From NCBI GenBank assembly GCA_037917675.1, contig JAVCBW010000052.1, forward strand, positions 1 to 16,577: DNA of 16,577 nt, written 5' to 3'. Positions 3,089-16,577 of this stretch are shown one piece after another. Under the pieces are notes generated by a model. The model did not search any database. It saw only the letters and a list, made by a program, of their open reading frames with translations, and was not told the origin of the DNA. Positions within the stretch are counted from its first letter, which is position 1. Each line of letters opens with the position of its first letter. Source of the DNA: Thermoproteota archaeon (GTDB taxonomy: Archaea > Korarchaeota > Korarchaeia > B14-G2). The position numbers and the translations under genes were made by a program.

Positions 3089-4615
3089 ATGCTAGAGTTG
3101 CCGGGGCTAGACTTGAGGAGCCTGAAAGACCCAAGCCTAGAGGTTAGGGCAAAGCTGGATAAATGGAGTCATGTAGTTAGCTTATGGTCCACTGGGAGAG
3201 CCAGCGAGGCCCTAGAGATCTATCTTAAAGAGATTCTGCCTGCTGTAGCTCTGAGTGAAGCTGAAAGGTTTCGTAGAGAAGAAGCTGCTGGCGTACTTAC
3301 TCCACCTGATATACTGCTTACATGCGTTGGCGAGCGATTCTATCCTATCGTAATCTTCCTTGTCACCTCAGCTTCCTATGCTAAAGGACATAAGCCTACA
3401 GCCTACCTAGTGCATTCTAATGAAACCAAGGAGGAAGCTAAGCAGGCAGCTAAGCTTGCCTCTCAGCTCACTGAGCTTGAAGTAAAATATGTTGAAGTCG
3501 ACCCTGCCTCAGTTACTGATGTAGCCTCCAAGCTAAGCAAGCTCCCTATATCAGAGAACAACACAGTATACGTCGACCTGACAGGTGGAACAAAGGCTAT
3601 GGTAGTAGGCCTACTGTCTTCAGCCTGGGCTTTCAGAGACACAAAGGGAGCTAGAGTCTACTTCTTCTACACCACCAGCATACCTGAACCCAAGCTGAGC
3701 GATAAGAGAGCCCCTCACAAGCCCTTCACAGAGAAAGTCAGGCTGCAAGGTAGCCCACAGCAGCTTCTCAGCCAGCTATACCTAGCTAGGGTAAGAGAGC
3801 TTATAGCTCAAGGTGAAGTCGAAGCTGCACTCCCACTGCTAAAAGAGCTCATAGCCTACTCCATTGAGAGCAGTGAGAGAGCACTCTACACACACCTCCA
3901 CAACGTATATGAGGTGATAAACCTCCTCAAGGACCTCAAAATAAGAAAGTACGTGAAACATGCCAAGGAACTGCAGCTCCCTGAACTCGACATAGCCAAG
4001 AAGCTCACAGCACAAGGCATTATAGTAGAGCACATAAAGGCTCTCAAGCTCCTAGCAGAGGAGCTAGAGCTAGTCAAGAAAGCTCAGTCAGACCACAGCC
4101 TCCTCCTAAAAGACCCACAGGCTCCGAGAGCTCTAGCTATACTTGCAGCAACCATCCTCTGGATAGCAGAATACATGAGACAGCCATGGGCTTCAGCACA
4201 GCTATACTACAGGACAATAGAGCTCTCACTGCAAGCACTCCTCCTAAAACATGGCCTCTGGACAGGAGCACTATCAGAGGAGAAGATGAAGCAGCTAGGG
4301 ATACCAGAAGACACCATAAGAGACGCAGAGAAGTGGGGGTGGAAAGTAGGCCTCAAAATAGCCCTCAAAATAGCAAAGCACCTAAACCCTAAGCTACCAC
4401 TATCCCCCAGCGAAGTAGACAGCTACACACAAGAAAGAAACACAAGCATAGCAGCACACGGCCTAAACCAACCAGACAGAAAATCCAGAGGATACGAGAA
4501 GCTCGTCCAAAAAGCAAAAGAAATAACAGAATACACGCTAGCAGAACTCAAAGCACTAGAGCGAGCAAAGCAGATAACAGAGGCACTAACAGCACTGACA
4601 ACCAGAAGCAGCTAA
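3089..4615 (+). CDS. csx1: CARF-HEPN cyclic-oligoadenylate-activated RNase (Csx1/Csm6-like, TIGR02710-type)
   Basis: CARF motifs LLTCVG, LVHSNET and VYVDLTGGTKAM, a helical middle region, then YYRTIELSLQ and the HEPN-type motif RNTSIAAHG near the C-terminus. TATA-like CTTATAT at 3065, so the start may be the TTG at 3098. Confidence 0.85.
   Translation: MLELPGLDLRSLKDPSLEVRAKLDKWSHVVSLWSTGRASEALEIYLKEILPAVALSEAERFRREEAAGVLTPPDILLTCVGERFYPIVIFLVTSASYAKGHKPTAYLVHSNETKEEAKQAAKLASQLTELEVKYVEVDPASVTDVASKLSKLPISENNTVYVDLTGGTKAMVVGLLSSAWAFRDTKGARVYFFYTTSIPEPKLSDKRAPHKPFTEKVRLQGSPQQLLSQLYLARVRELIAQGEVEAALPLLKELIAYSIESSERALYTHLHNVYEVINLLKDLKIRKYVKHAKELQLPELDIAKKLTAQGIIVEHIKALKLLAEELELVKKAQSDHSLLLKDPQAPRALAILAATILWIAEYMRQPWASAQLYYRTIELSLQALLLKHGLWTGALSEEKMKQLGIPEDTIRDAEKWGWKVGLKIALKIAKHLNPKLPLSPSEVDSYTQERNTSIAAHGLNQPDRKSRGYEKLVQKAKEITEYTLAELKALERAKQITEALTALTTRSS
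4275..4307 (+). repeat. 33-bp perfect inverted repeat, copy 1 (inside csx1)
   Basis: cagaggagaagatgaagcagctagggataccag is the exact reverse complement of 5359-5391. Confidence 0.95.
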
Positions 4616-5344
4616 ACCACAGCATCAGACAAAGCCAAGATCAGAACACATGAGACAGCACCATAAGCTTCTCAACATGTCATATAGCAAAGCTAACAAT
4701 CCACTAGAGAAACATACCAACATACACTCACAAGATCCTCACGATACCAAGGTCACCTTGTAGATAACGGTGACTTCAATGAAAGACCTTAACCTACCTC
4801 ACCATCTCTCATTTACCTGCCTCGAGATTATGTGTAGAGTATGCTTACCTTCTTCTTGGAGCTGCTGAATGTGAAGCTCTCTAGCTAAGATGGAGTTGAT
4901 AAACTAGCCCTCTCTACTAGAGGGTAATGTATCATAAGTCATAACCTGTACCCTAAACATCTCCCTTAAGGATGAGATTCTCCACTCTAAGGATCACACT
5001 GGCCTTTTTTGGTGTGAAAAAACCTTATTAAGTTTGTTCTTGAGACTGGATACAGAAGATAGCTGGCAGTACCTTGGACAGCAAGAACACTACGCGAGCA
5101 ACACGGCTTATTCCCTCTAGATAGGTCCTCTCCAACCCTTCTCCTACAGCGCTTAAACGCTTGATGAGGCTTCACAGCTAGCATGCTCATCTATGAAGGC
5201 AGCTATCCACTAGCCTCCACTCTCATGATGAACCTCCTGGCTTTCGGACCTCCCATGAGGTACATAGCTATGATACTATAGAGTCAACTGTGACCTTGCA
5301 CTTACCTTGCATGTGAGAAGCTTACGCCAGCTGTTATAAGAGCA

Positions 5345-5716
5345 TTATAAGCTGGATCCTGGTATCCCTAGCTGCTTCATCTTCTCCTCTGCAGGCTTCT
5401 TTGGCTCAAGCGGGCTCTTAGCCTTCTGATCTAGCTCCTGGAGGCAGCTAGCTAGCTCTTTCCAGTTCTCTGGAAGGACTGCCCCAGCTGTGTAGCAGCA
5501 GTCTAGTAGATCTCTCCATGTTAAGTCTTCTGAAGCCCTCTTTGGCAGCATGCTTCTCGCTGGAAGCTGAGCCCACAGTTCCTCCAAGCTCAGCTTCATC
5601 AGAGGATAGCTGTGTGAGGGGCTTCTCAACTCTACTACTGGGCCATATAGCCTCCATATCCCATTGAAGACTAGCATAAGCTCTCTTGGCGCAAACGTAA
5701 GCTCTTGGAGAGGCAG
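5345..5716 (-). pseudogene. Truncated gene, probably the N-terminal part of an archaeal CRISPR-associated PIN-domain protein
   Basis: The frame is open from CTG 5716, 4 nt after a GGTGA RBS that overlaps the upstream CARF stop. The segment LTWRDLLDCCYTAGAVLPENWKEL resembles, from recall, the region preceding the DTN catalytic motif in archaeal CARF-adjacent PIN proteins. The ORF switches into csx1-derived sequence and stops before any DTN motif. Confidence 0.45.
5359..5391 (-). repeat. 33-bp perfect inverted repeat, copy 2 (3' end of the truncated ORF)
   Basis: ctggtatccctagctgcttcatcttctcctctg. Both ORFs translate it as EEKMKQLGIP, and identity stops abruptly on both sides. Confidence 0.95.
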
Positions 5717-5720
5717 GGTC

Positions 5721-6173
5721 TCACCTTATCTTGACCAGCTTATGTGCTCCAATTGGAATTAGAGGGTAGAGTTCATTTAGGTAGCTTTGGTCTCTCAGGT
5801 GCAGGTAGTAGACCTCTAGGTTTAGCTGGGATGCTGCAGCGAAGATGGCTGCTGACATCGTCTTCCTACCTCCTGTTATATCTGCTATGACCCTCCTACC
5901 AGCTTCAATCTCTCTTTCAGCTATAGCCTTCACTGTGCTTATAGCTGAGCTCACGTTGTCTTCACTTACCATCTTGAGCTCTACTCTAACTGGCACTAGA
6001 GTAGGTAGAGCTTTCTTGAGAGCTTCAGCTACATGAGCTGAACCCTCACTATATAGGAGGATTATCTTGCTAGGCTCTATACCATGCTCTATCAGAGCCC
6101 ATGCTGCATTCAGGACTGCAGCATGGCTTAGACCTACTGGCATTATGAAGACTGTCTCCCTGGGATTAGCCAT
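5721..6173 (-). CDS. Stand-alone CARF-domain protein (candidate cOA ring nuclease or sensor)
   Basis: About 150 aa with FIMPVGLS, IILLYSE, VIADITGGRKTMSAA and VYYL: a complete CARF Rossmann fold with no effector domain. The ATG at 6173 follows an AGGAG RBS. Confidence 0.85.
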   Translation of the reverse strand: MANPRETVFIMPVGLSHAAVLNAAWALIEHGIEPSKIILLYSEGSAHVAEALKKALPTLVPVRVELKMVSEDNVSSAISTVKAIAEREIEAGRRVIADITGGRKTMSAAIFAAASQLNLEVYYLHLRDQSYLNELYPLIPIGAHKLVKIR

Positions 6174-6177
6174 ACTC

Positions 6178-6936
6178 CTAGCTTGCTCCAAGAGCCTTCG
6201 CTAGCGCTTCTCCAATAACCCTGCCTTCTGGTGTAGGGATGAGCTTCCCCCCAGGTGTCTTCTGGAGGAGACCTGCCTCTACTAGCCTGTCTATACTCCA
6301 GTTTGACGGCCTATGGGCTTCAACTCCCCTGAGAGCACCTACAACATCAAGGAGCTCCCCTCTAGGATATGGGAGAACTGGGATCTCCACTACAGTATAC
6401 TCTCTGGGGTCAGGGTACATCACTGAATCTAGCTTGCTGCTGTACCTCCTGTATGCTTCAGCTGGATCTTTTGCTGCAGCTACCTCCTCTAGCAGAGGTC
6501 TAACCTGCTCTAATGCCGTGTTCACAAGCTCCACGTCCCTGTGGATTACATGGAGAACCTTAGATGCTCCTAGGAGCTGCGCTACCAAGACTGCTGCAGC
6601 AGCCATCGTCTTCCTCCCTCCTGCAGCAAGCAAGTAGACTCCAGCAGCTGAGTGCTCTCTCACAGCTCTCCCACAGGTCTCTATGAACTCAGCTAGCTCC
6701 TCTAGTGTAGCCACATCCTCTGCCTTACAGAAGTACCCGTTGACTTCAGCTCTAGGCCACCTAGCGAGGACAGCTCCCTCCACAACCCTAGCTGCTGAGA
6801 CAACCTTAGGGTGGCTTGTGCCGACAACTCCAAGCTTCCTACCCCAGGCTCTCCTCCTATCAAGGTAGTCTATACAGGATGTGACAACTGGAGGTGAAAG
6901 CCCGATCAACGCGACAACATTAGGCAGGAATACCAC
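6178..6936 (-). CDS. csx14: CARF plus C-terminal wHTH protein, Csx14/NE0113-like
   Basis: LIGLSPPVVT, EDV and LLAAGGRKTMA motifs, VLHVI, and a C-terminal wHTH-like segment IDRLVEAGLLQKTPGGKLIPTPEG. Minus-strand TATA-like TTTTTATC near 6965. Confidence 0.75.
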   Translation of the reverse strand: MVFLPNVVALIGLSPPVVTSCIDYLDRRRAWGRKLGVVGTSHPKVVSAARVVEGAVLARWPRAEVNGYFCKAEDVATLEELAEFIETCGRAVREHSAAGVYLLAAGGRKTMAAAAVLVAQLLGASKVLHVIHRDVELVNTALEQVRPLLEEVAAAKDPAEAYRRYSSKLDSVMYPDPREYTVVEIPVLPYPRGELLDVVGALRGVEAHRPSNWSIDRLVEAGLLQKTPGGKLIPTPEGRVIGEALAKALGAS

Positions 6937-7121
6937 CAGTCAGCTAGCCTCCCATCAGATAAAAAAGTTGCTATAGCACTCGAGGAGCCTCTCTTGCAGG
7001 CCTTCTCCTAGGCGCCCCTATCTCAAAGCAAGCTCTATGAAAAAGATCGCAGGACATCTACTAGACAGACCACTGGGCCAGGTAGCTGCTGAGCTGTTAA
7101 GAGCCGCCTTAGGCTTATAGT

Positions 7122-7781
7122 CTAGAGCTGCCTTATCTTCCTATATAGAAGTATGCCCACTAGCAGCCTCATCAAATATGATACCATCTGGCCGAGTGGG
7201 CCTATGAGAGATAGTGCTTCAAGCGGGACTCCTGCTAGTATTGCATCCAGCTCCATGGCTGCTTTCTCCTCTGGTGTTCTCTTCACCTTCAGCTGGTGTG
7301 GTGGAGGAAGCTCTACTATCCTCCTGGATTTCTCGTGTATAGTATGCTTTTAGCCCTCTTTCTGCCGCTAGGACGCTCAAAGATGCTATCTCAACCTTAA
7401 ACCCCCTGTCAAGTTTAAGAGCACCTCGCTGCGTCTGTCCCCTTCTACTATAACCTTCACCTTCTGAGTGAGGTTTTTTAATGCCTCCTGGAAGTCTTTT
7501 GTCCCAAACCCCACTACTGTCATGACTTCAGCTATGTCTCTACCAGCCAGCTCATCCAAGTAGCTTTCAACTACTCTAGCACATAACTTGCCATGTGGCA
7601 TGTCTGTAGACATCAGATACACTCTCTCTACATCTCCTATGGACATGTTTCTGTCCTCTAGATAAGTTAAGAAAGCATTAAGTTCAGCTGAAGCCCCCTT
7701 AGGATCCTCTCTGACTGCTAATGAGTTTCCTATCGACCCCCTGGAGTATACTAACTTAATGGAACTTCCTAGGGTCTTTTT
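7122..7781 (-). pseudogene. Frameshifted APE2256/Crn1-family CARF gene with a hydrophobic C-terminal extension
   Basis: Manual translation gives ...SIGNSL.VREDPKGASAELNAFL...VYLMSTD..HGKLCARVVESYL...GFG.KDFQEALKNL...VLLNLTGG. After a 1-nt loss near 7400 it continues (F)KVEIASLSVLAAERGLKAYY. After a 2-nt loss near 7340 it continues (I)HEKSRRIVELPPP...LLVGILLYRKIRQL to a stop at 7124-7122. SAELNA, NxTGGFKxE and YYIHE....VELP are APE2256-family hallmarks. No intact start codon lies upstream of these motifs. Confidence 0.8.
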
Positions 7782-8120
7782 CTATACTCCCAGCCAAGGG
7801 AGGTAGGTACCCATGAGTTCATATATTTGATGACATCTCTCTAGACATACGAGCAGCATCATCCTGGAGATGGGGGAAGTTACCCAAAGAAAGTGATCTA
7901 GGCTTTAAAGCCACTGAACGCCTAGAGAAGCAGCTGCATTTATGTTGTGCTAGGAACCTACTGGCCTAAGCTCGTCCATAATACATTGCTCTATAAAACT
8001 GCTAACGTCTACAGCTTAAATTATTTTAGAAACTGCTATAGCTGACCTCTTGTTAGCTTTGGTTCGCTATAGACCTCATCTTGATTAAGATGCTGTGGCT
8101 TGCTGGTATAAATTAAAGAA

Positions 8121-8140
8121 ATGAAATCTTTATTTATCAG
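8121..8140 (+). promoter_or_regulatory. Putative BRE/TATA promoter of the cas10 operon
   Basis: GAAAtcTTTATTTAT lies about 32 nt upstream of the cas10 ATG, in an AT-rich intergenic region. Confidence 0.5.
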
Positions 8141-8168: not shown

Positions 8169-10604
8169 ATGCAGGTATTAAGAGGGCTGTTTGTTCCATA
8201 TAGAGTGAAATTCATGGAGTATAGGTGGGTTCTATCTCAGGCAGAGCTCGAAGACAGCTACCTGTGGTTTAAGAGGCTTGTTGACAGCTTGCAGCCTGCT
8301 CTAAATAGGATAGATGATGAGAAGGCTCGTGTTGATCTGCTAGCTTGCCTGTTTAAGCTAGCTTACCCTGGAGAGAAGTATGCTAAAGCCTACTTAAAGA
8401 GACACCTGAAGAGGTTTCTGCCAGGTGTACTTGGGGATCCAGCTATTGAGGAGGCTTTAAGGGGGAACTTGTGGCTTATTCCAGCTGACACACGCCCTGG
8501 CATGAATACTTCATCTCTTATAGCTCACCAGCTTGCTACAGCAGCCATATCAAATGCTTTAAGCGGGGGGGAGCTGAATTTTAGGGTGGCTTGCCTCCTC
8601 CATGACATAGGGAAAGGCTACCTTGATGAAGGTGTTGAGAAGCCTTATGTCAAGCATGCTGAGAGAGGAGCCAAGGTTCTGCAGTCTAAGCTAAGTACCT
8701 TTGCTAGCGCTGCAAGCTTAGTTGAGGAGCACCATAGAGCTGAGAACATAGTGAGTAGATGTGACCGCATAGCCTCAGCTATAGATAGGCTTCTAGAGCT
8801 CATAGAGCTGGCTATAGGCAGTGAGCTGAAGGAGCTCGCGAGGGAAGCTGGCATCATCAGAGAGGAGGGCTTGACTAGGGCGCTATACATGGATAAGAGC
8901 CTCCAGTACTTCTGGGATAAGGTGCCCTTAGAGAAGCAAGCTAAGCTTTCAGAGAAATTCGTCAGAGAAGCGCACATGTATAGGGATAAGCTTACCCTCA
9001 CAGGAGAGCCCGTGAGCGGGGTTCTTCTGCTGTACGCTGACGCCAGGAGGATAAAGCGGTTCGTTGACGGGAGCAGTTACATCAGAGAGATGCGTGGTGG
9101 AAGCAAGCTTGTGAGCAAAGCTGTAGAGCGGCTTGCTCATGTTGTAAGTCAGAGGCTTGGCCCAGAGAATGTCATCGTAGCTGGCGGGGGAGTGCTCTTT
9201 GCGATAGCTAACAGGGAGGTAGCTGAAGACGTTAGGAGAGAGGCTGCTAACTGTGAGAGCGAGCTAGGCCTCTCGTTCACTGTGACAGAGGAGACCCTGC
9301 TGGATCAAGTGCCATTAGGAATCCAGTGGCAGAAGCTTGTCTCCAGGTGTGGAGTTGAAAAGCTGGACCTCACTAAGCTGAGAAAGCCTGTGATACCAGG
9401 GTCAGCTGAATTATGCTCCTCATGTGGCGAGAGGCCTGCAACAGGCTACATAAGGGAGGAGCCTGTATGCGCCCTCTGTGAGAGGAAGTATAATGAAGGC
9501 GAGTCTACTATCATGGAAATCTTACGAGCTCTTGGAGAGGTAGTTAAGCCTGGCGCCTTCGAGGGAATTTTAGACAACATTCCTGATTTCCTAGCTGGAG
9601 TGCCTCAGGAACTGCTTAAAAAGGAGCTCAGGGAGCACCCTATGGACTTGGCTGTTGTTAAGGCTGACGGGAACCTAATGGGGTGGTTTATAGGGTCTTC
9701 TGTGAGCTTAACTGAGCTCATTGAGAAGAGCAGCAGGATATATGGCGCTATGGATGCTGTTAAGCATGAGGTAATGGAGATGGCTAGGAGCTTAGGTGGC
9801 AGCTACGAGCTCAGGTTCAGGTGTGGGCGCATATACTGTGAGGGAGACGACTTCCTCTGGCTTATGCCAGCTTGGGCGTCTCTCAGGGCTGCCCTGAAGG
9901 TAGCTGAGACCTTCTATGACATGATGGGTGGTGTATGCAGCCTGTCAGTTGCTGTAGTAGCCTTTAACCCAAGGTACCCGCTTTACATGGCTATGTCGCT
10001 GGCTGAAGCCATGCTGAAGCACACTAAGGAGGTTTACAGGAGGAGGATGAGTGAGAAGCTGCCTGATGGGAGGCTAGCTGACATCGGATACATGGACTTC
10101 GAGGACCTATCCACGACTAAAGTTACAGCTAGAAGCTTCAAGGCTGTCAGAGCTAGGCAGGGGAAGACAACTGCTAGGCCATATAGGATCCCAGCTGATG
10201 GCAGGGGAGGGATCCTAGAGCTGCTTGAGATCATGCTGGGTAAGGAAAGTGAAGGCCGTAGTGTGAAGCCTAGTGATAGGGCAGCATTCATCAAGGAGCT
10301 AGCTGGAGAAAGCTGTAAGAGCAGGCTTCAGAGGATTAAGGATGCAAGGAGGATTGTAGGCAGAATGCTCAGCTACTTTAAGCTCGAGGACATCGAGACT
10401 GAAGCTAAGCTGGCTTTGATGTATGCTGCCAGGCAGCATGCTAGGGGGGTTGAGAGAGCGCAGCTCTACCTCGACTGCTTCAACCTTCTCTATCCCATGC
10501 TGTCTGAGAGCGGAGCATCCATGCTCATGGATGCCTACATAGCTTTGAGGATCTGTGGGGCAGCTGTCGACGAGGAGGTGCTGTGCATTGGAAGAGAGAA
10601 TTAG
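8169..10604 (+). CDS. cas10: Type III CRISPR large subunit Cas10 with HD nuclease and Palm domains
   Basis: PADTRPG..SSLIAH; HD motif LLHDIGK...H...EEHH...DRIAS; Palm1 ADARRIKRFV/RGGS/AGGG; Zn finger CSSC...CALC; Palm2 KADGNLMG and YCEGDD. Confidence 0.95.
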   Translation: MQVLRGLFVPYRVKFMEYRWVLSQAELEDSYLWFKRLVDSLQPALNRIDDEKARVDLLACLFKLAYPGEKYAKAYLKRHLKRFLPGVLGDPAIEEALRGNLWLIPADTRPGMNTSSLIAHQLATAAISNALSGGELNFRVACLLHDIGKGYLDEGVEKPYVKHAERGAKVLQSKLSTFASAASLVEEHHRAENIVSRCDRIASAIDRLLELIELAIGSELKELAREAGIIREEGLTRALYMDKSLQYFWDKVPLEKQAKLSEKFVREAHMYRDKLTLTGEPVSGVLLLYADARRIKRFVDGSSYIREMRGGSKLVSKAVERLAHVVSQRLGPENVIVAGGGVLFAIANREVAEDVRREAANCESELGLSFTVTEETLLDQVPLGIQWQKLVSRCGVEKLDLTKLRKPVIPGSAELCSSCGERPATGYIREEPVCALCERKYNEGESTIMEILRALGEVVKPGAFEGILDNIPDFLAGVPQELLKKELREHPMDLAVVKADGNLMGWFIGSSVSLTELIEKSSRIYGAMDAVKHEVMEMARSLGGSYELRFRCGRIYCEGDDFLWLMPAWASLRAALKVAETFYDMMGGVCSLSVAVVAFNPRYPLYMAMSLAEAMLKHTKEVYRRRMSEKLPDGRLADIGYMDFEDLSTTKVTARSFKAVRARQGKTTARPYRIPADGRGGILELLEIMLGKESEGRSVKPSDRAAFIKELAGESCKSRLQRIKDARRIVGRMLSYFKLEDIETEAKLALMYAARQHARGVERAQLYLDCFNLLYPMLSESGASMLMDAYIALRICGAAVDEEVLCIGREN

Positions 10605-13882: not shown

Positions 13883-14682
13883 AGATCCGAGGAAGGATCA
13901 TAGCTGAGTCTCCAATACATGTCGGCAGCGGCCAGCAGGGAGTCTCACTCCAGCCGGTAGACAACTATGTCATCAGAAGAAGGATGTCAGATGGCTCAGA
14001 GCAGCCTTACATACCTGGAAGCAGCCTAAAAGGAGTGCTAAGGTCTACGGTTGAAAGAATACTAGCCACAAATGGGCTATACTGCTGTGACATAATAGGT
14101 CAACAAGACTGCTCAACACGCCTCTCAAGCAAGCTCTCAGGGATATCTAGAGTCAGGAAGCTTGTAGGCGAAGTTGAAAGTTTCCAGGATCTAGTTAACA
14201 AGGTCTTTAAGATCAAAGACATGGATTACAGAAGCAAAATCCAACTTCTCAAGGAGGTAGTCGATAAGACGTTCTGTGAGGCATGTAAGATATTCGGTAA
14301 CGCAGGCTATGCCTCAAGAGTCTATGTCTATGATGCCACGCCAGCAAAGAGCTCAGATGGCAAGTATGCTGTGTGGACAGGCATAAGGCCAGGCGTAGCC
14401 CTAGATAGAGAGAATGGGACAGTAGCCAGAGGCCCCTTCTTCATAGAATACATTGAGCCCGGGAGCATCTTCAACTTCAAGCTAATAGCAGACAGCTTAG
14501 AGAAGTATCAGATAGGCCTCATCCTAGAGTGCATAAACCTAATTAACAGTGGCCTAGTCCTGATAGGTGGTGTAAAAAGCCGCGGGATGGGCAAGGTTAG
14601 AATAGAGCTAGAGGCCCCAAAGGAGCGTGAGCCCTACCTAGAAGAGTGGGGGAGCTACCTTGCTAAGTCAAAGAAGCCTTAA
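13873..14682 (+). CDS. cas7: Cas7-group RAMP (Csx7/Csm3-like)
   Basis: The frame is open from 13870 and encodes LAVEIRGRIIAESPIHVGSG...VDNYVIRR upstream of the tracked ATG at 13984. It continues with PYIPGSSLKGVLRS, CEACKIFG, GVALDR and IGGVKSRGMG. Confidence 0.9.
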   Translation: MAVEIRGRIIAESPIHVGSGQQGVSLQPVDNYVIRRRMSDGSEQPYIPGSSLKGVLRSTVERILATNGLYCCDIIGQQDCSTRLSSKLSGISRVRKLVGEVESFQDLVNKVFKIKDMDYRSKIQLLKEVVDKTFCEACKIFGNAGYASRVYVYDATPAKSSDGKYAVWTGIRPGVALDRENGTVARGPFFIEYIEPGSIFNFKLIADSLEKYQIGLILECINLINSGLVLIGGVKSRGMGKVRIELEAPKEREPYLEEWGSYLAKSKKP

Positions 14683-15718
14683 GACAATAAATGTAGCCTA
14701 CACGCTGAGGACAATAGGTGTAGCCTACAGGCTGAAGTTCTGCTTAAAAGCCCTCGGTAGAATTCACGTTGGATCAGGGCTATTAAACCTGAGCTACATA
14801 ACTAGAATGAAGCTTGAAGACATACAGTGGATCCGCTCACAGAGGAAAGTAAGGTTAAAAATAATAGAGGAGGGCGTAAAGCAGCCAGAGCTCAAGGAGA
14901 GTAGGAGCTACGAGAAGATAACGCAGTCCACTCCAATAATACCAACGCAGTTCACTCCAATAATACCTGGCTCAACTCTAAAAGGCCTAGTGAGGCAGAG
15001 AATACATCATGCTATCTCATCCAAACAGAAGCCAAACATCGAACACCTAATAAGAAACATTGCTAAAAGCAGGAAAAGCTGGAGACACGTTGTCCTATAC
15101 GGCAACTGGAATCCCGACGAGAAGAAAGAAGAAGTTGAGAAGCTGTTTGGAAGCACCAGCATGCAATCAAGGGTCTACTTCTCAGATGCAGTCCCAGTAA
15201 CTGAGCCAATCACCATAGTCTACTGGAGCGGGAGAGCATACCACACAGAGCCACCTAGCATGGGGAAAGCATTTAGGTTCAACTATGTTGCCATAGAAGA
15301 GGGCACCGAGTTTGAGTTCCACATGACCTGCTTGAACACAAGCATATATGAGCTAGGGCTCCTCCTTAGAGCTCTCAACTTAAACCCCAGCAATCCATGT
15401 GAGTACAGTGACAAGCACTACATCCTGATAGGGAGAATGAAGTACAGGAAAAATCTGGCAGGTAAGCCAGTAGGAAAGTGTAGCGTGAAGCTGGTAGCTG
15501 GAGCAAAATACGTGAAGTTAAAGGAGGAAGAGATAAAGGACTTAGCCGGCTTCGCTAAGGAGGCTATAAGCCAGTCTAGAGAGCACTTCGCTGACAACAG
15601 AGTACGCTTCGCTGACAACAGAGTACTTGAAAAGCTACCTGAAGAATACCATGGGCAAACACAGGGAGACTGGAAGAAGGTACTTAACGCAGTCATCTCA
15701 GGAAGCTACCCATACTAG
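14660..15718 (+). CDS. cas7: Divergent Cas7-group RAMP with insertions (Csm5-like terminal subunit)
   Basis: IHVGSG, IIPGSTLKGLVR, LFG...SRVYFSDA, ELGLLL and a degenerate G-loop IGRMKY...VG. Confidence 0.8.
   Translation: MLSQRSLKTINVAYTLRTIGVAYRLKFCLKALGRIHVGSGLLNLSYITRMKLEDIQWIRSQRKVRLKIIEEGVKQPELKESRSYEKITQSTPIIPTQFTPIIPGSTLKGLVRQRIHHAISSKQKPNIEHLIRNIAKSRKSWRHVVLYGNWNPDEKKEEVEKLFGSTSMQSRVYFSDAVPVTEPITIVYWSGRAYHTEPPSMGKAFRFNYVAIEEGTEFEFHMTCLNTSIYELGLLLRALNLNPSNPCEYSDKHYILIGRMKYRKNLAGKPVGKCSVKLVAGAKYVKLKEEEIKDLAGFAKEAISQSREHFADNRVRFADNRVLEKLPEEYHGQTQGDWKKVLNAVISGSYPY
14681..14734 (+). repeat. In-frame 27-bp tandem duplication (KTINVAYTL/RTIGVAYRL)
   Basis: aagacaataaatgtagcctacacgctg / aggacaataggtgtagcctacaggctg, 4 mismatches. 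Confidence 0.85.
14920..14967 (+). repeat. In-frame 24-bp tandem duplication (TQSTPIIP/TQFTPIIP)
   Basis: aacgcagtccactccaataatacc / aacgcagttcactccaataatacc, 1 mismatch. Confidence 0.9.
15586..15626 (+). repeat. In-frame tandem duplication with 21-bp period (FADNRV twice)
   Basis: cttcgctgacaacagagtac occurs exactly at 15586-15605 and 15607-15626. Confidence 0.9.
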
Positions 15719-15726
15719 GTGGGAGA

Positions 15727-16011
15727 TTGCTTAGAAAGCTAGCTGAGGAGGCTGGGCTAAAGGCTACACACGTGATAATCTGGAAGAAAGATGGAGCAGA
15801 GTATCTGAAGAAAATAAATGATGTAGTTGACGAGGACCTAGAGGAAGCATACGGAGGCTACATACTAGCTCAAGACAAGGCAGTAGCCTGGATCCTCAGA
15901 TGTGGAGAAGTAAAGACAGAAGAACCAAGGAAAGCTACTCAAGCAAATCCACATAAAGCAGTCCCGACACAGAAGCTAGAGCTAAATAAAGTAGCCATCC
16001 CAGAGCCATAG
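15727..16011 (+). CDS. Small beta-rich protein closing the operon, Csx19-like (possibly 3'-degraded)
   Basis: TTG start after GGTGGGAG, 8 nt after the upstream stop. HVIIW...GGYIL...AVAWIL pattern and terminal position fit type III-D csx19, but the match rests on position and resemblance only. Confidence 0.45.
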   Translation: MLRKLAEEAGLKATHVIIWKKDGAEYLKKINDVVDEDLEEAYGGYILAQDKAVAWILRCGEVKTEEPRKATQANPHKAVPTQKLELNKVAIPEP

Positions 16012-16149: not shown

Positions 16150-16577
16150 CAGCATGATGCAAGCAAAAACATAAGAGTTATAGGAACATGAAAGAATACT
16201 TCTCAAATACATGTAGTACAATGCAAAACACCATAGATACCGCCTCATACAGCCAGAGTGCAAAAATAGCGTATACACAAAACAGAAATTTCGACGAGCC
16301 AAAACACTCAAATAACACATAAATGAAGAGATAACATACATGAAAACCAAGATTTGAAGAGACTTATAAATTACAGCAATACCATATAATATGAAGAGGT
16401 GATTCAGCAGCAAAAGGAGAAAGCAGACAGCTATATGCTAGCTAACAAAGCTAAAAATGCATATAATCCATGTATTTAAAAATCAACAAGCTAAATGAGC
16501 TATTCATATCCACCAGCGACACACTACCATACCCCGTTTACTTATAAACAAAAGCATTACTCAACAGACACCAAAAC
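16150..16577 (+). promoter_or_regulatory. AT-rich non-coding tract, candidate CRISPR leader
   Basis: Sharp drop in GC and no credible ORF. TATA-like CTTATAAA at 16541-16548, 29 nt before the sequence ends, directly downstream of a cas operon. Confidence 0.5.

Follow-up and report, generated by a model that had tools for sequence, protein, structure and literature searches.

A 33-bp inverted copy of a csx1 segment at the truncation point of a CARF-linked PIN gene in a korarchaeal CRISPR-cas locus is most likely a repair scar

The 16,577-bp stretch analyzed here (the window) is one entire contig (JAVCBW010000052.1; 48.6% GC) of the draft genome of an uncultured Thermoproteota archaeon of the Korarchaeota lineage (GCA_037917675.1; 62 contigs, 1.78 Mb, 92.7% complete). 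A csx1-type gene, which encodes a CARF-HEPN protein, is separated by a non-coding interval, the filler, from a minus-strand block of CARF genes that ends in the remnant of a gene for an N-terminal domain–PIN (NTD-PIN) nuclease. The far end of this remnant is a 33-bp segment (5359-5391) that is the exact reverse complement of a segment inside csx1 (4275-4307), as the original prediction had recognized. The subject of this report is the origin of this inverted copy and of the truncated gene that it terminates.

The 33-bp match is far beyond chance. In 40 Markov order-3 and 40 Markov order-5 sequences simulated to judge repeat significance, the longest exact repeats measured 17 and 19 nt, respectively, and none reached 20 nt; the next-longest exact repeats of the window itself are 20, 20, and 15 nt. 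Genome-wide (1.78 Mb), the 33-mer occurs at two sites when up to three mismatches are allowed, both of them in the window, and the reversed control pattern has none. A repeat search reports the pair as the longest inverted repeat of the window, 44 nt at 89% identity with arms at 4275-4318 and 5348-5391. By hand count, complementarity beyond the 33 perfect bases falls to 6/11 on the inner side, facing the 1,051 bp that separate the arms, and to 1/10 on the outer side, so that both borders are abrupt, the outer one more so; the sharp borders described earlier are thus confirmed. The same holds for the claim that no wider paralogy links the two genes: in a BLASTP comparison of the two host proteins, the alignment is confined to 15 residues around the copy. 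Both copies encode the peptide EEKMKQLGIP, each in the reading frame of its host open reading frame (ORF), and the csx1 and remnant mRNAs share the same sense sequence over the 33-mer and are not complementary to each other.

Which copy is native follows from a homolog of the csx1 product. The 508-residue csx1 protein (P0001) matches the Pfam family CARF_Card1 above its cut-off (29.8 bits). Its Csm6 HEPN domain (residues 368-481; 24.4 bits against a cut-off of 27) and the family TIGR02710 (39.1 bits against 83.9) score below theirs, and an R-x6-H motif (R450-H457) is visible in the translation. By its domain architecture, P0001 is a Csx1/Csm6-type CARF-HEPN protein, with the curated whole-protein cut-offs not reached. 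The copied segment covers residues 396-407 (...S-EEKMKQLGIP-E...), upstream of the catalytic motif. A homolog of 488 residues (P0005) aligns with P0001 without gaps over 486 residues at 72% identity and is collinear through the copied segment, where it reads SEEKMRQLNIPEDTI. Because this collinearity extends across the segment, csx1 is the donor: its copy is native and 5359-5391 is derived.

The gene that receives the copy is recognizable from a single relative. Its open frame comprises 126 codons, and the first in-frame ATG, at 5677, defines a 110-residue ORF (P0002, 5345-5677) that ends in ...KKPA-EEKMKQLGIP-GSSL-stop. Among 1.84 billion representative proteins, one real relative of P0002 was found: P0006, a protein of 342 residues encoded on the metagenome contig L007, which is the sole intact comparator locus (phmmer E 1.5e-31, 61% identity, query residues 2-96 to target residues 17-111; BLASTP 58/95 identities). 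The other three matches (P0007-P0009) are long proteins, P0007 being a repeat protein, and were not taken as relatives. In P0006, an N-terminal domain, which has no Pfam family, is followed by a PIN_4 domain at residues 114-245 (24.4 bits; cut-off 21.9). A six-frame search of the korarchaeal genome with P0006 recovered residues 3-112 only, at 5387-5719, and six-frame and tblastn searches found no match to the PIN part in the window or in the rest of the 92.7%-complete genome; the best tblastn candidate, at 15694-15984 (E 0.11), was rejected by BLASTP (E 7). The window thus keeps about 111 codons before the PIN_4 region, which do not make a PIN-domain nuclease, and the "CARF/PIN operon" of the original prediction is a misnomer in that the window lacks the PIN part.

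The loss of homology coincides with the copy. By blastn, L007 can be aligned with the window over 899 columns (72% identity), as far as window position 5391, and the codons at the breakpoint read E-P-R-K-P-A|V-A-V-D-T-N-Q-L-Y in L007, where they enter the PIN domain, and E-P-K-K-P-A|E-E-K-M-K-Q-L-G-I-P-G-S-S-L-stop in the window. In protein as in DNA, the homology of the minus-strand gene to P0006 and L007 runs up to the outer border of the copy and stops precisely there. Of the readings originally offered, the scar of a template-switch or inversion event that truncated the neighboring gene is the best supported: the homology stops at the copy, and the PIN domain is missing.

In L007, the stop codon of a CARF gene like that at window 5721-6191 overlaps with the GTG at which the NTD-PIN gene of 342 codons begins, and a Cas4 gene and a leader-like region follow downstream. 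A GTG overlaps the CARF stop in the window as well, yet the DNA alignment places it out of frame with the conserved frame. With the ancestral GTG out of frame, the remnant has probably lost its natural start and, from its sequence, is probably a pseudogene. The NTD-PIN family (L007 547-1575; window 5392-5719) appears to be extremely rare, since only P0006 and the remnant were found: P0002 has no match in 40 relatives, P0006 has none in 39 other genomes of the class or 42 other genomes of the phylum, and searches of a word index of 5.8 billion sequences returned no longer P0002 alleles and no P0006 relatives. The CARF gene of L007 that matches window 5721-6191 (L007 127-550) aligns by tblastx in two pieces, 127-177 and 176-550, in two frames, and this copy may be frameshifted or may contain a contig error.

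Table 1. Features of the window and metagenome contigs matching parts of it
Feature	Positions	Strand	Description
csx1-type CARF-HEPN gene (P0001, 508 aa)	3089..4615	+	donor of the copied segment
Native 33-mer	4275..4307	+	from S396 (base 2) to E407 (base 1) in the HEPN domain, upstream of R-x6-H
Non-coding filler, unique, 743 bp	4616..5358		between the csx1 stop and the copy; GC 44%; stops in all six frames
Imperfect palindrome	5327..5355		ccagc-tg-TTATAA-gagca-TTATAA-gctgg; TTATAA at 5334-5339 and 5345-5350
CRISPR-repeat-like 16-mer	5336..5351	+	13/16 against the 3' end of the genome's CRISPR repeat
NTD-PIN gene remnant	5345..5725	-	open frame of 126 codons; 5392-5719 match P0006 residues 3-111
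Derived inverted 33-mer	5359..5391	-	reads ...A|EEKMKQLGIP|GSSL-stop; homology of the relative stops at 5391/5392
CARF-only gene (P0003, 156 aa)	5721..6191	-	Pfam Cas_APE2256 and CARF_Card1; directly upstream of the remnant
Csx14/Crn1-like CARF gene (P0004, 252 aa)	6178..6936	-	leading gene of the minus-strand block
20-nt perfect inverted copy of a cas10 segment	6939..6958		between a TATA-like T-run and the P0004 GTG start
cas10 arm of the 20-nt inverted repeat	10063..10082	+	in frame in the intact 811-aa Cas10 ORF, ...LPDGRLADIG...
X1 contig	3900-4307		depth 158; contig of 1,302 nt
X1 contig	4278-4685		depth 133
X1 contig	4656-5388		depth 36; 4 mismatches and 1 gap relative to the window
X1 contig	5643-6000		depth 107
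X2 contig	3900-4685		depth 110.5; single contig, unbroken through the csx1 copy
X2 contig	4656-5147		depth 26.6
X2 contig	5643-5798		depth 92
X2 contig	5800-6000		depth 73

Based on these data, the feature that had been proposed as an antisense regulator is most likely a repair scar. In the model that we favor, and to which we give about an even chance, the 33-mer arose as a short templated patch during the repair of a DNA break, with csx1, 1.05 kb away, as the template for an inverted copy. A complete 342-codon NTD-PIN gene would once have lain downstream of the small CARF gene, as in L007. A break in or next to this gene would have led to the loss of everything past codon 111. The 3' end on the filler side (5358) would then have reached csx1, by fold-back or by a template switch, and paired there with an imperfect inverted microhomology (4308-4318; 6/11), and 33 nt would have been synthesized from 4307 back to 4275 before an abrupt join to 5392. 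The order of these events and the repair pathway are what we infer from the final arrangement. Since the patch falls in the same reading frame, the remnant ORF now reads EEKMKQLGIP-GSSL-stop.

Several observations agree with such a templated insertion. The patch is inverted and identical at 33/33 positions, it has a defined donor in csx1, and the genome holds only these two copies; moreover, it sits exactly where collinearity is lost, as judged against one comparator at 72% DNA identity. The asymmetry of the borders (6/11 inner, 1/10 outer) is as priming by fold-back predicts. Contig breaks between strains (4656-4685 and 5643) together with the low depth of the filler in two metagenomes described below (36 versus 133 and 158; 26.6 versus 110.5) are compatible with a recent structural variant, although whole-contig means do not prove one.

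Other points weigh against this model. The sole intact comparator, L007 with P0006, is only 72% identical in DNA and 61% in protein, and no closer pre-event allele turned up among the 40 relatives, the class and phylum genomes, or the word index. The inner microhomology of 6/11 is weakly above chance, and that at the outer junction could amount to 0 to 3 nt (CAG), depending on the ancestral sequence. The template lies 1.05 kb from the junction, beyond the range of the local fold-backs of yeast, and an archaeal pathway of this kind would be assumed by analogy. A scar would make both the in-frame copy, for which chance alone gives 1/3, and the adjacent promoter-type hexamers coincidental. Finally, with 743 bp of unexplained filler, the event was not a simple deletion. 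The filler has no second copy and no six-frame match in the genome or to the C-terminus of P0006, and it matches nothing in 40 relatives, phages, or plasmids and no Rfam family. A fragment of a mobile element was considered for it and rejected, as there is no phage or plasmid match, no genomic repeat, and no Rfam family. When the DNA from 3089 to 6200 was compared with the 40 relatives, nothing meaningful was found; a single 31-nt match (G024) lies in the CARF gene.

Public metagenomes provide a view of the region in near-identical strains. Two sediment metagenome runs from two studies (X1 and X2) contain contigs that match parts of the stretch, and a third run contains none; depths in Table 1 are mean word depths per whole contig in a metagenome and not copy numbers. 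Overlaps of 30 nt between contigs mark branch points at the repeat, in X1 only, and at 4656-4685 and 5643 in both runs. In X1 and X2, the version of 4656-5388 shows 5 to 6 differences from the window, and the flanks show 0 or 1. The X1 contig that covers 4656-5388 enters the second copy by 30 nt, one letter short of the criterion for a bridge, and by this reach it lends near-independent support to the adjacency of filler and copy. No X1 or X2 contig covers 5391-5642 or crosses 5391/5392; such gaps prove nothing, and the outer junction is left unconfirmed. No joints or loose ends are reported among these contigs. The depths suggest that the filler variant is in the minority, although whole-contig means from a metagenome are no proof of this. 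An intact gene of P0006 length starting from the GTG at 5722-5724 would end near 4696; the proximity of this projected end to the 4685/4686 branch point is a hint that a complete gene may exist in the other haplotype. Overall, the cluster appears to vary between near-identical strains.

The branching at the repeat bears on an unlikely alternative, in which csx1 was the subject of a longer inverted duplication. According to this scenario, the csx1 promoter and codons 1-406 once lay to the right of the filler, or still do in some strains, and a deletion left the last 33 bp. The X1 contig ending at 4307 includes the repeat in full, and its last 30 nt connect to two further contigs, 4278-4685 and 4656-5388; the X1 contigs presumably were built with a word size of 31, which fits these overlaps. 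With one entrance and two exits, the logic of the graph would allow the second copy in X1 to continue into inverted csx1 sequence and not into 5392 onward, and the order of the depths fits as well (158 upstream of the repeat, 133 downstream, 36 in the filler). These depths are, however, whole-contig means and not copy numbers, contigs drop rare paths, and the window itself has 33 bp of csx1 identity only, with a sharp outer border. The duplication would also require two events, whereas a templated patch requires one.

The same branch points, at 4656-4685, at the repeat, and at 5643, indicate structural heterogeneity between strains in exactly this interval, which raises the question of an assembly artifact. 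Two strain haplotypes could have been joined at a shared short repeat, in which case filler, copy, and remnant would not lie on one molecule. That the draft consists of 62 contigs, of which the window is a single complete one of 16.6 kb, and that the metagenome version of 4656-5388 carries 5 to 6 differences against 0 or 1 in the flanks, speaks for this possibility, and 33 is a k-mer size common among assemblers. On the other hand, the final k-mers of common metagenome assemblers exceed 33 and would have required reads across the whole copy. The sequences on either side of the second copy are unlike those on either side of the csx1 copy. As a graph assembler switches only inside a shared word, real molecules must join the copy to 5392 and onward, and the copy to the filler; the second of these joints is the one that the X1 contig enters by 30 nt. 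We consider an artifact rather unlikely.

The presence of both arms in coding sequence invites a further interpretation, an invertible switch. Recombination between the arms would flip 4308-5358, swap the ends of the two genes, and toggle the toxic RNase off. Because both arms are in frame, both inversion products would be open: a csx1 gene ending in ...EEKMKQLGIP-GSSL-stop without the R-x6-H motif, and an NTD remnant that gains the last 102 codons of csx1 together with the motif. Perfect 33-bp arms flank the segment, R450-H457 lies inside the exchanged part, and gene-internal inversions that recode or truncate proteins have been described in bacteria, alongside 12 putative archaeal invertons (10.1101/2023.03.11.532203). 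Against a switch, none of the 22 window ORFs scanned has a recombinase match in Pfam, one arm lies at the point of decay of a pseudogene, and the arrangement is present in no related locus (40 relatives). The X1 and X2 contigs show no alternative orientation or joint, with the proviso that k=31 contigs are blind across a 33-bp repeat; their words being shorter than the repeat, they cannot tell the orientations apart. A dedicated switch is improbable.

Next to the copy, on its filler side, lies the imperfect palindrome with two TTATAA boxes, which is present as originally described; the stop codon of the remnant ORF falls inside the second box. Palindromes of this class number three in the window, compared with a mean of 0.4 and a maximum of 2 in 30 Markov-1 simulations, and the one at 5327 has no motif in common with those at 4040 and 8108. 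A scan for promoters and terminators of the bacterial type returned nothing relevant. The premise that TTATAA acts in promoters is reasonable: in 678 crude upstream regions, the hexamer is enriched about 10-fold at -60 to -20 (rank 5 of 1242 hexamers), and it peaks at -40 to -30 before start codons, like other TATA-type hexamers. Twin TTATAA boxes within 15 nt occur twice in the genome. The only other two TTATAA of the window, at 16364 and 16542, are located in the A-rich 3' end of the contig. Here, window 16262-16555 is 67% identical to L007 2432-2723, after cas4, and is probably a CRISPR leader, with the contig ending where the array would begin. An AT-rich palindrome at 8108-8140, 30-60 nt upstream of the cas10 start, looks like the promoter of the type III operon. 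In the middle of the filler, a T6...A6 motif at 4999-5024 supplies an oligo-T run on either strand; oligo-T is an archaeal terminator signal, and the motif could terminate both convergent transcription units.

It had been proposed that a TTATAA box drives a plus-strand RNA, beginning near 5360-5375, with 33 nt complementary to the csx1 mRNA, and that this RNA restrains the HEPN RNase; the transcript would also be antisense to the CARF genes. The upstream enrichment of TTATAA, the rarity of the twin arrangement, and the AT-rich palindrome in the cas10 promoter region are in line with this proposal, and an RNA read from the plus strand across 5359-5391 would indeed be antisense to csx1 mRNA. Yet TTATAA is itself palindromic and hence gives no direction. 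RNA folding of the palindrome is no better than that of shuffled sequences (z -0.9 and -0.5), and no Rfam family matches. The 33-mer and palindrome are absent from the related genomes (40 relatives) and contigs searched; those 40 genomes yielded no orthologous locus, and L007 extends over the intact-gene side alone. In X2 a single contig passes through the csx1 copy with no branch to a second one. No public RNA run among those listed matches the locus. Finally, the borders of the copy are those of the gene truncation, which needs no function. Regulation by such an RNA is improbable.

A related and still weaker proposition concerns the CRISPR machinery itself. The copy had been described as being of about spacer length, a loose statement in that it measures 33 nt and native spacers 38-39 nt. 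The only assembled CRISPR array, of four repeats, lies at the end of contig C29 (7533-7787) and has an unusually long repeat of 35 nt with spacers of 38-39 nt. The 33-mer is not among them: at up to three mismatches only the two window sites exist, and the C29 spacers are unrelated, a weak negative because the arrays are mostly unassembled. However, a 16-mer that resembles the 3' end of the repeat precedes the copy, oriented such that a guide would target csx1 mRNA. The segment 5344-5391 could accordingly be imagined as a degenerate single-repeat unit yielding a guide like a CRISPR RNA (crRNA) for the adjacent type III complex, and thus a self-regulating RNA of the HEPN effector, which we regard as highly improbable. 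The putative handle matches the last 8 nt of the repeat at 6/8 positions. From the end of the 16-mer to the end of the copy, the guide would measure 40 nt, compared with native spacers of 38-39 nt; its last 33 nt would pair perfectly with csx1 mRNA and its first 7 nt at 3/7 positions.

Matches outside the array that are as good as 13/16 number 32 among 3.56 million positions, and the chance of such a 16-mer ending 0-12 nt upstream of a given site is about 1e-4, a value computed after the fact. Over the whole repeat, the match is 19/35, which is reached at about 1,300 genome positions; a generic local-alignment null is equaled by 25% of windows, and no downstream repeat lies beside the 33-mer (6/35, hand count). 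Transcription from a TATA box at 5334 would begin only past the putative handle, which also counts against a crRNA-like product. The 13/16 match falls short of the 16-bp match used by Shmakov et al., going by the accessible text of that survey (10.1101/2023.03.03.530964), in which type III loci are without identified targets and without enrichment between cas genes. In a type III system of Sulfolobus, mismatches adjacent to the handle abolish the synthesis of cyclic oligoadenylate while backbone cleavage continues (Rouillon et al., PMC6053304), and by analogy the guide could let the effector trim csx1 mRNA without raising its own alarm, which gives the idea a coherent mechanism. If true, this would be a type III example of a crRNA-like regulator whose target is identified, of which the available portion of the survey (10.1101/2023.03.03.530964) contains none.

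Returning to the repair scar, the decay of its surroundings and a second short inverted copy also speak for it. P0004 matches Pfam Cas_NE0113 (E 2.2e-16) and, below the cut-off, NCBIfam cas_csx14 (63.5 bits). A Cas_APE2256-type CARF gene at 7386-7720 on the minus strand is frameshifted inside the conserved ...LNLTGG|FK... motif and is a pseudogene that continues in another frame, the listed 86-residue ORF being one piece of it. With the start of the remnant out of frame and a neighboring CARF gene frameshifted, the cluster around the remnant is visibly decaying. Moreover, a 20-nt inverted copy of a cas10 segment lies at the other end of the minus-strand block (5392-6938), which is thus bracketed by short inverted copies of the flanking plus-strand cas coding sequence. 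This repeat exceeds every exact repeat of the 80 Markov simulations (19 nt at most). The order of the arms does not agree with one simple inversion with staggered breaks as the source of both repeats, and the two repeats do fit repeated template switching or repair in this interval. At the cas10 arm, the Cas10 proteins of relatives, at 25-32% identity, are too distant to judge seven codons, and one match (G040, residues 102-763) spans the arm. No repeat-like sequence lies beside the 20-mer (best match 8/16). Elsewhere in the window, a 20-nt exact direct repeat with 21-nt spacing (15586-15626) duplicates seven codons in tandem close to the 3' end of a 352-residue RAMP gene (14660-15718).

The 110-residue ORF at 5345-5677 should be annotated as what is left of a CARF-linked NTD-PIN nuclease gene and not as a new small protein, and the locus, if the scar is accepted, provides a base-resolved templated inverted patch at a gene-truncation junction within the CRISPR accessory cluster of an uncultured archaeon. 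The 33-bp inverted pair could mediate an occasional inversion of 4308-5358, severing csx1 from its R-x6-H motif, and the scar sequence would pair with csx1 mRNA if transcribed. Inversion or pairing could be co-opted.

Compared with known systems, the arrangement has partial counterparts in several. Regulatory RNAs that resemble crRNAs and derive from degenerate mini-arrays or from single repeat units, of the CreA, CreR, and scaRNA type, have been described in two studies (10.1101/2023.03.03.530964; 10.1101/2023.03.10.532045). Like these, the locus has a spacer-length segment in a CRISPR-cas locus that matches a gene of the same locus and is preceded, in an orientation that would give a guide, by a sequence resembling the repeat 3' end. 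Unlike them, its repeat match is 13/16 and 19/35 with no second repeat, and its pairing with the target is free of mismatches over 33 nt and in coding sequence, whereas theirs are partial and in promoters. As with self-targeting spacers, a stretch roughly as long as a spacer is identical to a chromosomal gene; the locus differs in lying outside an array, in having no array copy in the assembled genome, and in measuring 33 nt instead of 38-39 nt. Its inverted repeats are in coding sequence and in frame, as in intragenic inversions and shufflons, which are presumed to be enzyme-mediated and pre-programmed (10.1101/2023.03.11.532203). In contrast to these, there is no nearby recombinase and no evidence of both orientations, and one of the two partner genes is a pseudogene remnant.

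A further counterpart is the class of templated inverted insertions at break junctions in yeast. There (PMC11724301), insertions of 2 to ~150 bp are primed at imperfect inverted microhomology, and the other break end is then joined with 0-5 bp of microhomology; templated insertions by microhomology-mediated break-induced replication, with template switches at microhomology, have also been described (PMC8421209). The korarchaeal locus is similar to the yeast junctions so described in having a short inverted patch at a junction with imperfect microhomology on one side and an abrupt border on the other, and its 33 nt lie within the 2 to ~150 bp range. It differs from them in that the template is 1.05 kb away and not tens of bases, the host is an uncultured archaeon, 743 bp of unexplained sequence accompany the patch, and the pre-event allele is seen only via a 72%-identical relative. 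The element is a known mutational signature in an unusual setting and not a new kind of element.

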